NCBI GenBank assembly: GCA_951406725.2
Contig: OX597830.1
Coordinates: 31,310,001 to 31,374,000 of the forward strand
Direction: 5' to 3'
From: Octopus vulgaris
Taxonomy: Eukaryota
Length of the DNA: 64,000 nucleotides
The notes under the pieces were generated by a model. The model did no database searches and was not told the origin of the DNA. It saw only the letters and a list, made by a program, of their open reading frames with translations. The position numbers and the translations under genes are program-made. Positions 2,862 through 52,792 of this stretch are shown in pieces. Within the stretch, counting starts at the first letter, position 1. Each line of letters begins with the position of its first letter.

Positions 2862-3894
2862 TATATATATATATATATATATATATATATATATATATAT
2901 ATATATAAATAAAACACGTATATATGCATACTTATGTGTGTTTTATATATATCTGTGTATGTATAAAACGCGTGCTGCACTAATCTCTTCTAACATTACA
3001 ACAATTAGTTTCGCTTTTATCTGTCTCTTCAGGAAACAGGCGGAAAGATTACTTGAATCCAGTTCACGTAGAGCAAACAAATACACACACACACACACAC
3101 ACAGACATACGCACACATACAGACACACACACACACACATACACACACACATACACACACACACTATATCTATTTCTTCTCTCTGTCTCTCTCGCATACA
3201 CAAATAGTAAATTTGTGTCAATGGATCTCCATTTGTTTCACCGACAAGCCTAATTATTTGGTCAACTGAATTATCTAATCAATGCAGATAATTCAGTTTA
3301 ATGTGGCTGAGTGTTCTGTAGACATATGCAATCGTAACTTAATCTTCAGGCATAATATCTATTCCACAGAGTGTATCATTCGTAGCCCTTTGCCTATTAC
3401 AGGTACACTCCATCCGACATGCTTTGTCAACGATTTCAGTCAACCACACAACCCACAGATCCCTATTGATCGAACTTTTTTTTTTCTTTGTGTCCCACCC
3501 ATCCCGCCTCGAAAAGAAAAAAAACTCTACATTGTATTTCGTCCATTTTTATTCTGTGTTTAGCCCTGTGTGGCCACAATAAAAAGTTATTTCAGTCAAC
3601 AATTTCAGTCTTTCACAATTTCTTTCACAAATCATGGGCCAACACTTATGCAACATTCCATACGGCGGGATCTTTGTGATTACCGAGCGAACACTTGGTC
3701 ATGCCAGCATCTATGCCCAACACACTCCTAAACACACGCAAAACAGAGAGCAAAAATTATCTTCTCTCGGAGAAACTTCTTGGTAATCTATCAAGTACGA
3801 GAAAGACAATTCTGCAATGTTTTGCTGAACGATTTGCACTGAATATTCGGTTATAGAAATCAAATTTTTGTGTTGTACATTAGTTCACTTCCTC

Positions 3895-4076
3895 CATCAA
3901 ATCAACATTGGCGCTACAGGTGCACAAGTGTGCCACACTTCAGTCGTCGAAGTGATCGCAGAGCAACGCGAAATGAAGTGTTTTGCCCAAGAACATTACG
4001 CTTCGCCCGGTCTACGAATTGAAACCACGATCTCGCGAGTGTGAGCGCAACACCCTAGCACTAGGCCACGCGCCCT
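3895..4076 (-). mobile_element. tRNA-derived SINE, family E
   Basis: Minus strand GCGCGTGGCCTAGTG (A box) ... GGTTTCAATTC (B box) ... TTCTTGGGCAAAACACTTCATTTC; homologous to 47710-47840 and related to 40320, 42968 and 48430. Confidence 0.75.
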
Positions 4077-4104
4077 CACATAACGGAAACTAGATAAAGC
4101 AATA

Positions 4105-4300
4105 AACGGTATGATTCAACGAATGGTACGACAGAATGGATAGTATGGCGCAATGTAGGGCATGGAACAATATATAATAAATGATATGGCTATGGTATAA
4201 TGTCATTTGTACTATGTACGGTACATAGTGCAATGAATGGTATGGTAGAATAGATGGTATGGCATAATGGTACAATGGACAGTAAAATGGACGGGATGAT
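4105..4300. repeat. Degenerate pentanucleotide-like (ATGGT/ATAGT) tract
   Basis: Recurring ATGGT/AATGG/ATAGT units. Confidence 0.55.
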
Positions 4301-6037
4301 GTGCTCATTACATCTTAGAACCGTCGAAATGATGGAGAAACATCATCAACTAATATATTTCTCTCCTTCTCTACCATGTCTGTCTTCTGGTTATCTTTCT
4401 ACCAATATCCCTCTCTCCGCGCCTGTCTAAATTTATGCACATATATACACTTGCATTATCAGCGGGGCCACGCAATCTGTTAGAAATAGGAACCAAATCT
4501 CACTCACAAGACACACACACACTACATATGGTTTCGCTAGATGCTCTAAATCCACGTTTATATCTTATCATTATATATATATATATATATATATATATAT
4601 ATATATATATTATGAGATAGATAGATAGATAGATAGATAGATAGATAGATAGATAGATAGATAGATAGATAGATAGATAGATGAGCCGCGAGTCAATATG
4701 AAATTCGTATATACACACACACTTATACACACTCGTACACTCATAATTGCACATAAAATTCATTCAGCTGGATATTATTTACACCGCTACTTAGAGTTTC
4801 CCTGCTCAATACGGATCGTCAGATAGCAACTTATGAAAAAAAATGCAGTGTGTCGCAGAGAATTGGAGTAACGGAGATGTTTATACTCACTAGGAATTTG
4901 CATAAAACGTTAGGTGTGGCCAATCAAGGAAACTGAAAGCTGGCAAATGGGTGGTATAAGGGTAGTGGGTGGATGAGGTGAGGTAGGATGGAACTTCAGG
5001 GTTGACTCTAATTGATTTAACAGTTGGGTAAATTCACGGTTAAATTTATAGGCGGGGGTATGAACAACATAGGAACGGCAATAGAATGTGTGTGCGTGTG
5101 TGTGTGTATCCATGTGTATGCTTCTATTTTTATGTTCGCGTATGCGTGTGTAAGTGTGTGTGTGTGCGTGCGTGTGTGTGTGTATGTGAGTGTTATCTCC
5201 GTTGAAATCGACTCAGTTGAAGTGAATAATTTTCACATGTAGTACTCATTACATGATATGAAGGTTGAGCTTCATTTCTTACATATATATAAATTCACAC
5301 ACACACACACACACGCACACACACACACACACACACACACACACACACACATATATATATATATATATATATATATATATATATACAAACATGTATATAC
5401 ATACATTCATTATATGTACATATATATATATATATATATACATATGTATACATACATTCGCACACATATATGTACATACACACACACACACACATATATA
5501 TATATATATATACACACACACACACATATATATGTATATACATACATTCATGTATATATAGGTATGTGTAGAAAATTAATGTAGTCAGCAGTAAGCAATA
5601 CACACACACACAAATATATATACATATATATATATACATACACACACATCACACACACACACACACACACACACATATATATATATTCCATCTTCCTCCG
5701 TTATGAAGCGCTTGGCATTTGGTAATTTTCCTGCACTTATCTTTATCCCAACACAGTATTATGTGTTTTATCGCTTTATCCTCTTTTCCATGTTTTTTTT
5801 TTAAATGAGGGAGATGGGTTGTTTGGGGTCTAAGAGGGCTAATGAGGTTACTGTTATGTTTATGTATGTATATGTATGTTTTGCTTCCATATATTTGAGT
5901 CTGGACTTTGCAGTTATAGGATTGGTGTTGAGAGTATGTGAGTGGTGATCTGCAGAGGTTATTGGTGATGCATCTGGACGCTGTACTTGGTAGTATTGTG
6001 AAAATACTACCACCACCACTGCTGCTTCTACTGCTTC

Positions 6038-49792: not shown

Positions 49793-50013
49793 TATTTCTT
49801 TACTACCCACAAGGGGCTAAACACAGAGGGGACAGACAAATGGATTAAGTCAATTACTTCGACCCCAGTGCGTAACTGGTACTTAATTTATCAACCCCGA
49901 AAGGATGAAAGGCAAAGTCGACCTCGGCGAAATTTGAACTCAGAACGTAACGGCAGACGAAATACGGCTAAGCATTTCACCCGGCGTGCTAACGTTTCTG
50001 CCAGCTCGCCGCC
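49793..50013 (-). mobile_element. Full-length young family A SINE
   Basis: Close reverse complement of 43912-44139. Confidence 0.92.
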
Positions 50014-51340
50014 TTAATCATATATATATATATATATATATATATATATATATATATATATATATATATATATATATATATATATATATATATATATATA
50101 TATATATATATATATATATATATATATATATATATATATATATATATATATATGTAATTATATATCACCTACATTGCACACAAGTCCACTTTGACATGGG
50201 TTGCTCGGTATTCTGAGAAGCAGAGTCTAGATGCCCGTATCGTTGCCAACCTTGACCTGCATCTAAGAAAGGTAATGAGTCTCAATAGCCAGACATCACT
50301 CCAACACAGGGAATCAGAAAAGAAGTACACCAGTTGTGTGACAGTCACATATACACACGTACTTCAAATCAGCATGTGATTTATACACACATACATATAG
50401 ACAGACATATATGTGTGAATGTCTATATATATTATATATATACACACACACATTTATATATATATGTGTGTGTGTATATATATATATATATATAAAGTGC
50501 ATATTTTACATGTATAAGCATTCAAATATATATAATGTAAAATATCGCAACAGTTACATAAATTCCTATGCACGTAGGTAGCATAGAGTTATTTATATCC
50601 ATATTTATGACAAAAATGTTGATGTATGATGTATATATGTATAATACATACATACATATAATACATATATAATACATACATATATACATACATATATACA
50701 CATATAATATATATATATATATATTTATTTATATATATATACATACATGTAGATATATATATGTGTGTATATATATATAACTATATAACTACTGTAAATT
50801 GCTTGTAGCATGTATATTATATATATATATGTATATGTATATATGTTTATATGTTTATATATATATATATATATATATATATATATATAGGCATCTGTAT
50901 TATATATATATGTATATACATACATATGCCATATGCACACACATATTTAGACAGGCCGACAGATAAATAGAGAGAGAGAGAGATGGAAGGATGGATACAT
51001 AGACAGACTTAACAGGTCGCTTGTGGGTGCCACTAATATCATGTAACTCAATGCAACCTGCTGCTGCAATGGCAATCCTGCTGAGCTTGCATGGTGATGA
51101 AGATGATTGCAGATGCCATGCATAATAACATCCTCCCACAAAATAGAAAAAAATACCTGTAACAGGGTGAATGAACTCGCGTGAATCAATGGTAGTCTTA
51201 TATTATATACACATGCATATATATATATATATATATATATACATACACACACATATATATACAGATATAGATAGATATACATTCATGCATATATATATAT
51301 ATATATATATATATATATATATTTAAATATAAATATATAT

Positions 51341-51554
51341 TCTTTTCAACTCTAGGCAGAAGGCCCGGAATTGTTTGGGATGGGTCAGGTCAATTAGATT
51401 GACCCCAGTACATGACTAGTACTTGAGTTATCGACCCCAAAGGGATGAAAGGCAAAGTCAGCCTCACCAGAATTTGAACTCAGAATATAAAGACAGATGA
51501 AATACCACTAAGCATTTCGCCCGGCGTGCTAGCGTTTCTGCCAGCTTGCCGCCT
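51341..51554 (-). mobile_element. SINE family A
   Basis: GATGAAAGGCAAAGTCAGCCTC...GAATTTGAACTCAG...GCCAGCTTGCCGCC. Confidence 0.85.
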
Positions 51555-52159
51555 TTACAAATGTACATATATATATATACTAATACATATATGTATGTGT
51601 ATGTGTGTGTGTGTGTGTTTGTGTATGTTGTATGTGTATGTATATACATATATATATATATATGTTGAGGTGTATTTTTATGTATATATATATGTATATA
51701 CATATATATATGCATTTATATATATATATATATATATATATATATATATATGCGGAGAGGGACTGTAATCAGCCAAACACCAATTGAGAATTCCCTAAAT
51801 TACAGTCCCTCCCAGCATATACGTATACAATTATTGTGTTTTAACAACAGTATAGGAGCACTTTAGCTCTTATTTCTAGCAATGTAGATGTCCTAAAATC
51901 CTTAGTTGCATCTAGCGACATTTACAGTTTTCCTTTTTGGTAACACGTTGCACAGTGTTATTTATGTTAATTTATATATATACATATATATATATAATAT
52001 ATATATATATATGTATATATATATATGCATATATATATATATATATATATATTTAAATATGAATATTCATATATATATATATATATATACATATATATAT
52101 ATATATATATATATATATATATATATATACACACACACATATATACACATATAGAAGGT

Positions 52160-52792
52160 ATATATGCATGACTGCATGTTAAGATATTTGTTTCCCAACC
52201 ACATGGTTCAGTGTTCAGTCCCATAGCGTGGCACCTCGAGCAAGTAAGTGTCCTCTACTATATCCTCAGGCTGACCAATGCCATGTGAATATGGATTTGG
52301 TAGATGGAAACTGAAAGAAGTTTCTAGAATCATATATATATATATATATATATATGATTCTACTAACTTATTTATATATAAATAATGCTCCAGTTTGGAC
52401 CTCTCAACACTTTCAGTAGAAGAGTGTAGGCTTGAAACATCAAAAACTTCTTCATTCTTCCCGAGTGTCATGCTAATACACCTGCTTGTTGTTTCCCCAC
52501 CTGTCCTCATCTTTTGTTCTCTGTAAAATTGATCCATATATATATCTATATCTACATCTCTATACGTGTGTCTGTGTTTGTGTGCGCGTGCGTGTCTTTG
52601 TGTCTGTTTTTTCCTCACAACAGCTTTGGTGTTGGTGTGTTTACATCCCTATAACTTAGCCGTTCAGCAAGCTAAAGCAATAGAATAACTATTAGCCTTA
52701 AAAAAAAAAAGAAGCCCCTGGGTCGCTTCATTCGACTGGGTGCCCCAGCATGGCCGCAATCTAGCAATCTAATGTCTGCAACAAGTAAAAAA
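52160..52792 (+). mobile_element. SINE family D with a family B element (about 52400-52535) nested in its internal microsatellite
   Basis: D 5' half 52160-52322 and 3' half 52565-52792; between them TTTCAGTAGAAGAGTGTAGGCTTGAAACATC plus the B tail. Confidence 0.75.

Follow-up and report, generated by a model that had tools for sequence, protein, structure and literature searches.

Minimal hammerhead ribozymes in an Octopus vulgaris genomic window as probable ends of Penelope-like retrotransposons

What are the short, mutually unrelated repeats with hammerhead-like motifs that lie scattered over a 64,000-nucleotide stretch of the Octopus vulgaris genome, and how do they spread? The stretch, hereafter the window, comprises positions 31310001-31374000 of contig OX597830.1 (assembly GCA_951406725.2), in a 2.8-Gb genome of 227 contigs. 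It is dense in microsatellites (236 microsatellite rows) and likewise in interspersed repeats, and a first-pass annotation made from its letters saw in it a population of non-autonomous, ribozyme-bearing retroelements mobilized by Penelope-like elements (PLEs). The elements are very probably the 3' terminal repeats of four protein-coding PLE families, called here A, B, C and P, as judged from the coding sequence into which their relatives continue. The general system, PLE ends with minimal hammerheads, is mostly known. Earlier publications already report hammerheads at the ends of PLEs, their targeting of TA and their inverted arms (PMC4209133; PMC8557442), and minimal hammerheads of metazoan PLEs, together with solo motifs, were described by Cervera and De la Pena (2014; PMC4209133). 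What is unusual is the spread of a U at core position 6 in family B and a tRNA-like segment in family A.

Hammerhead motifs and their density

The four families were judged from relatives elsewhere in the genome as well as from the window copies. The same order, namely stem I, core, an extra nucleotide, stem II, GAA, a palindromic stem III, H and stem I', is present in A, P, C and B, and this shared order, already claimed in the first pass, was borne out at 10485-10530(-), 29297-29350(-), 29382-29442(+), 35629-35722(-) and in five copies of family B. The minimal type I core (C3 U4 G5 A6 N7 G8 A9, G12 A13 A14, A15.1-U16.1, H17) is found in A, C and P. The core of B, initially given as CUGANGA, is in fact CUGUNGA, with U at the conserved position A6, and family B is a hammerhead variant outside the canonical minimal type I at that position. 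Several window copies are damaged: in P, the minus-strand copy has GAUA for GAAA and the plus-strand copy has a broken stem I and stem III, while in A stem II and stem III are altered; intact relatives of the damaged A and P copies exist elsewhere in the genome. The window holds 19 CUGANGA words, and a structure scan of it found a single perfect hammerhead, at 35712(-), and three further ones with one core mismatch, among them a weak one at 40354. An Rfam scan of the whole window showed no hammerhead among the 150 of 670 matches listed, which are dominated by microsatellite matches; the RF00163 match to the master hammerhead of family C scored 14.8 bits, below the cut-off of 34.

A strict descriptor, defined as the canonical core or one named variant plus a palindromic stem III, was applied to a genome sample of 127 arbitrarily placed 10-kb stretches (1,269,700 bp). 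It gave 47 matches, spread over 31 stretches; 10 local dinucleotide shuffles gave 0-5 (mean 1.5), and the reversed sequence gave 0. In the window alone there was 1 strict match, where 30 shuffles averaged 0.03. The exact pattern of family B, which has 30 places and leaves positions 6 and 7 open, returned 15,487 exact matches genome-wide and 0 in its control. With these figures against it, the idea that repeat-rich DNA produced the motifs by chance retains next to no probability, and it is refuted for the four named families, which are minimal type I hammerheads occurring far above chance genome-wide. It does fit, as far as tested, three weak matches, at 27011, 34080 and about 3000, which the first-pass annotation had also listed and which are unsupported as hammerheads. 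A genome search, which skips common words and can miss old copies, returned for 27011 and 34080 each only itself, none of the three had a match in the 1.36 Mb of loci compared, and folding gave no hammerhead for any of them.

After removal of 7 matches from one tandem array, the remaining 40 strict matches in 1.26 Mb correspond, by rough extrapolation, to roughly 90,000 intact-looking motifs genome-wide. A (TA)n tract lies at most 250 nt downstream of 32 of these 40, compared with 22.6% of random positions, in agreement with the microsatellite targeting proposed in the first pass. Profile searches of the sample yielded 13 matches per Mb for A, 28 for B, 2 for P and 6 for C.

Continuity with Penelope-like coding sequence

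Upstream, each of the four families runs on into PLE coding sequence, which upholds the link to PLEs that had been proposed. The earlier statement that none of the elements codes for protein thus stands for the window copies and fails for their families. The anatomy of endonuclease-bearing (EN+) PLEs is likewise found, with pseudo-long terminal repeats (pLTRs) that lie in tandem or in inverted order and a tail at one of the ends. The single frame (ORF, open reading frame) that encodes reverse transcriptase (RT) and GIY-YIG endonuclease is represented by an 899-aa open frame in C, is broken in A and B, and in P is seen as its endonuclease end only.

Family C provides the autonomous partner with the same termini for which the first-pass annotation had called. 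In a tandem array (L120-L122, contig C1: 119514151-119525324), four pLTR copies with a 3,625-bp period, each with a hammerhead, flank an open frame of 899 codons; the units are 99.9% identical and were thus recently copied. The direct and inverted arms in the window are 100% and 98% identical, respectively, to the pLTR of this tandem PLE. Over 30 loci, the inversion junction shifts between copies, and the 3' ends lie at two fixed points 154 nt apart, the length of the tail. The frame (locus L121) carries a DKT motif and the family is flanked by TA tracts, two features that fit the Hydra clade, so that C may be called Hydra-like; RWL stands in place of RWK, and a CxCx5C linker was unseen by eye. 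Among Atlas clusters, the nearest (score 0.98) have HTH_animal in 25-31% of their members; GIY-YIG occurs in others.

Family P would be an old Hydra-like PLE, by similarity to the endonuclease of C. In its 29 loci, several of which are one site on both strands, head-to-head arms are about 72-87% alike, junctions are variable and the tail is on one arm; at L145, an endonuclease end similar to that of C (E 9e-6) runs into the P hammerhead. For family A, an RT lies upstream, and the RT and endonuclease frames are broken. A DKG motif occurs in L206 and L227, with no linker motif in these fragments, and the family appears to be of Poseidon type by these motifs without a zinc-finger linker. Among 30 loci found with the A endonuclease protein, the short linker that follows the stop codon was present in 27 and the tRNA-like segment in 24, while 5 of 29 other loci found with the 3' part of A held the linker to the ORF. 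For family B, the sequence of locus L140 passes without interruption from RT (DKG) via a CxxxxCxxC linker and then a GIY-YIG motif into the B end, which L002, L027 and L030 likewise reach; the RT and endonuclease frames of the family are broken. The DKG motif and the Cx2-5CxxC linker assign B, on sequence grounds, to the Neptune type. Another candidate partner of B, L141, was rejected: a (TA)n tract lies between, and the arrangement is a nested insertion beside another Neptune-type PLE. The latter (L141:5341-7830) has a 710-aa frame and, in its 3' region, a hammerhead with a U3-A8 core variant, as seen by eye.

Several points weigh against the assignment of the elements to PLE ends. For the 899-aa frame of family C, Pfam found no family and a search of the PDB nothing relevant; no intact masters of A, B or P were found among the loci examined; the link of P to an ORF is one locus (L145), with the endonuclease end only; and the clades are set by motifs and Atlas neighbors alone. 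The ribozymes of the four families are candidates for cleavage, and four runs of assembled contigs, compared with families C and A, gave no usable start or end sites of RNA. The stem covariation that had been anticipated is present as a compensatory change in stem I of B and is modest, in that a single stem I pair, flipped from one branch to the other, accounts for 8 of 13 double changes in the B stems, and the covariation is in essence one event.

The claim that the elements form a non-autonomous population raises the alternative that the four families are independent, retrozyme-like elements that spread as short units. Short copies do far outnumber long ones, pLTR sequence can be mobilized in trans (PMC3846280), and the genome does contain a true non-coding tandem array (L123, see below). 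The continuity with ORFs in all four families speaks against such independence, as do inversion junctions that are copy-specific, the lack of diagnostic columns in A and the absence of tandem units from the window. The alternative is accordingly improbable overall and already largely refuted for family C.

If the elements are PLE ends, their short copies can be accounted for by analogy with the Poseidon element of Anolis (PMC11167929). The endonuclease of the element would nick AT-rich target DNA, reverse transcription would begin internally, at two sites that lie downstream of the ribozyme, and palindromes would come from two short cDNAs joined head to head or from one folding back. Copying only the end of the RNA would likely leave short, dead-end copies. 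Since sequence 5' of the cut site is retained in most copies, the template would mostly be uncut RNA. In tandem masters, two ribozyme copies would pair through the palindromic stem III and cut as a dimer; when dimers of C, B and P are folded, these palindromes do pair. Selection would keep the ribozyme in masters, but the core of the Neptune lineage would be relaxed, one branch having U6 and its sister branch C4.

The U6 core of family B and the tRNA-like segment of family A

In the first 100 of the 15,487 exact B matches listed, position 6 reads U in 96, A in 2, C in 1 and G in 1 (hand count), and position 7 reads U in 45, A in 25, C in 19 and G in 11. Among 46 core-spanning copies from the sample and the window, position 6 is U in 28, A in 15 and C in 3. 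The A6 copies fall mostly in a sister branch, and C4 replaces U4 in many of them; this branch, with a CCGACGA core and the flipped stem I pair, includes L132, L156, L187, L269, L297 and others. N7, H17 (G in 1 of 46) and loop II vary among the B copies; the stems and the remaining core positions are kept. Of the stem cells, 85.5% are paired, a value reached in 2 of 500 shuffles. Considered as free versus kept positions, this pattern suggests that the fold is selected in the masters of family B.

A less probable alternative is that the B motif is a dead relic, killed early by the A6U change, and had no part in the spread of the family. Activity falls when A6 is changed, as in a natural A6C variant of low activity (<0.1 per min; PMC3088659), hammerhead mutants were without effect on insertion in vitro (PMC11167929), and uncut RNA gave most of the B copies. 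Of 58 B matches, 47 keep the core and 2 begin at most 3 nt after the cut site (by eye), which indicates, as was found for Anolis, that cut RNA rarely served as template. The relic explanation is opposed by the 46 copies, which vary where working hammerheads are free and keep the remaining core positions and the stems, and by the compensatory stem I change between branches. No A6U or CUGUNGA hammerhead was found in the literature, where Lunse et al. (2017) or supplementary variant lists may describe U6.

The head attributed to RNA polymerase III (Pol III) in the first pass is present in family A as sequence, and lies inside the terminal repeat of an autonomous element. The letters of its A box, anticodon loop and B box stand at the standard tRNA positions. 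The segment has no match to the Rfam tRNA family (RF00005); ARAGORN found 0 tRNAs in the window and, on 60 A loci, 0 at default and two tRNA-Ser(act) calls at a lowered threshold. The segment was not encountered on its own: an (AAT)n tract follows it in all 29 loci found with the segment alone. In 23 of 30 listed head loci a hammerhead part was scored downstream, and in the rest other sequence interrupts (AAT)n. As an observation apart, this tract serves as a target for other elements that split A copies (L104, L219, L220, L242, L244, L261).

The segment likely marks where short A copies start. By eye, 27 of the 29 head-found loci end at about -7 to +13 of the tRNA +1 position and 0 enter the coding region, and in the arbitrary sample 5 of 7 heads stop at the 5' end of the segment. 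Exact genome matches of 22-mers number 2,931 in the head against 831 just upstream; corrected by exact-match rates of 14/53 (head) and 15/32 (upstream, leaving out 5 inexact matches in random stretches), they correspond to about 11,000 and 1,800 copies. No sequence common to 26 A tails follows them, and hence no tandem A master was found.

These starts might mean, in addition to the origin of A as a PLE end, that A also works as a short interspersed element (SINE): the A and B boxes of the pLTR would drive Pol III transcripts from near tRNA +1, and the PLE enzyme would copy these short RNAs, a reading that is doubtful though conceivable. The box letters, the pile-up of 5' ends and the lack, in 16 A copies, of four consecutive T anywhere from head to 3' end, a weak test on an A-rich strand, agree with this mode. 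Pol III transcription of family A is, on this sequence evidence, possible. A short hairpin at the same spot as the 5' end of the segment offers another cause, palindromes at pLTR 5' ends and inversion junctions being a known PLE trait (PMC3846280), and B ends pile up as well (13 of 21 loci in a 20-nt zone) without a tRNA. The weak tRNA calls also speak against a SINE mode, as does the lack of a separate short subfamily: no diagnostic differences between short and ORF-bearing A copies were found beyond CpG-type and query-biased columns, and no non-autonomous master lineage of A was found. The ages of short and long A copies carry no weight here, their comparison being biased by the queries. The combined proposition, in which a Poseidon-type PLE took up a tRNA-derived Pol III promoter and made SINE-like RNA (about ten thousand copies from tRNA +1) while a Neptune lineage spread a working U6 hammerhead in at least 15,000 exact copies, is rather unlikely to hold in full.

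Relation to described elements and other repeats

The elements resemble the metazoan motifs of PMC4209133 in their type I fold with a short stem I, in the extra nucleotide that precedes stem II, in the G10.1-C11.1 pair and the palindromic stem III, and in being mostly solo motifs from truncated PLEs, with many families per genome. They differ in that the core variants given there are U3-A8, with U6 unmentioned in the parts covered, and in number, 2,000-9,000 per genome being counted there against the extrapolated figure here, obtained with a different descriptor. Similarly, the C-terminal GIY-YIG, pLTRs and (TA)n insertion are shared with the Hydra, Neptune and Penelope-Poseidon EN+ PLEs (Craig et al., 2021; PMC8557442), as are inverted, 5'-truncated copies with a tail on one end and the clade motifs (DKT in C; DKG and a zinc-finger linker in B). 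Unlike Hydra in that study, C has RWL and no clear CxCx5C linker; its tail is 154 nt rather than 30-40 nt, and family A has a tRNA-like segment. The palindromic forms, thought undescribed in the first pass, already appear in PMC3846280 and PMC8557442.

Anolis Poseidon (Frangieh et al., 2024; PMC11167929) has, as here, two 3' ends bounding the tail, AT-rich targets and an uncut RNA template. In contrast, a tRNA-like segment is unmentioned in the covered parts of that paper, and the ATG of family C lies 46 nt after the tail and not inside the ribozyme. The SINE-like hammerhead elements of Schistosoma (PMC6765202) also have a Pol III-type promoter followed by a hammerhead, but they consist of non-coding repeats in tandem for which no PLE body is stated, whereas in A the promoter-like segment lies inside an autonomous PLE. 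In the literature, nothing pertinent was found on octopus hammerheads, on a tRNA or Pol III segment in a pLTR, or on a tRNA SINE mobilized by a PLE. Animal non-LTR retrozymes are non-coding, have a type I hammerhead and are related to pLTRs (PMC7229834; bioRxiv 10.64898/2026.07.22.740005), from which they are derived according to the latter source. Unlike them, the window elements are single or head to head, not tandem, and are pieces of coding elements. The window contains no tandem non-coding hammerhead repeats, and only the L123 array fits the retrozyme description. This array (L123:2097-4763, contig C1:20000001+) is a non-coding 359-bp tandem repeat of 5.6 units, to which an inverted part is added; each unit has a canonical hammerhead, and the whole lies between (TA)n tracts. 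It is retrozyme-like with the insertion anatomy of a PLE, and no further copy occurs in the 127 stretches.

The families offer a natural series for the role of PLE hammerheads, from an intact recent master (C) to a lineage with a changed core and a kept fold (B), and the genome also offers tens of thousands of insertion ends. If the segment of A were a working promoter, it would provide a route from PLE to SINE, a partnership not found described. pLTR fragments like these can be mislabelled as SINEs in repeat libraries.

Table 1. Hammerhead-bearing features and weak matches in the window
Feature	Position	Strand	Remarks
Family A, 5'-truncated pLTR of Poseidon-type PLE (putative)	10439..10765	-	Relatives reach ORF linker
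Family A hammerhead, damaged	10485..10530	-	Core 10519-10525; cleavage predicted after 10490; L091 and other loci have intact versions
Internal (AAT)n tract of family A	10605..10698	-	Length variable
Segment in tRNA register, tRNA positions about 9-75	10699..10765	-	A box remnant 10756-10765, B box 10712-10723
Family B copy	12535..12670	-	Core 12660-12666
Family B copy, decayed	38700..38872	+	Core 38758-38764
Family B copy, 3' end of Neptune-type PLE (putative)	40798..41052	+	Core CUGUUGA 40928-40934
Family B copy	47048..47195	+	Core 47080-47086
Family B copy, decayed	52400..52530	+	Core 52414-52420
Family C pLTR arms between (TA)n tracts	35573..36014	.	Direct arm 35723-36014(+), inverted arm 35573-35722(-)
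Family C intact hammerhead	35629..35722	-	Core 35706-35712; palindrome ACACGUGU; cleavage predicted after 35639
Family P, head-to-head pair of truncated ends	29272..29465	.	Cores 29339-29345(-), 29387-29393(+)
Weak match, unsupported	2995..3040	-	No relatives, no hammerhead fold
Weak match, unsupported	27005..27060	+	No relatives, no hammerhead fold
Weak match, unsupported	34075..34120	-	CCGACGA core and G at cut position; no relatives, no hammerhead fold

Other repeats of the window include a family ending at (TA)n, with copies at 38881-39188(+), 44196-44287(-) and 46504-46820(-). It has CUGAUGA followed by a short stem and no GAAA half in any copy seen, and is perhaps a PLE end with half a core. 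At least two abundant interspersed repeat families lack hammerheads (25303-25540, 43912-44162 and 49772-50015; 46054-46449 and 56677-57070); in appearance they resemble ordinary tRNA-derived SINEs.

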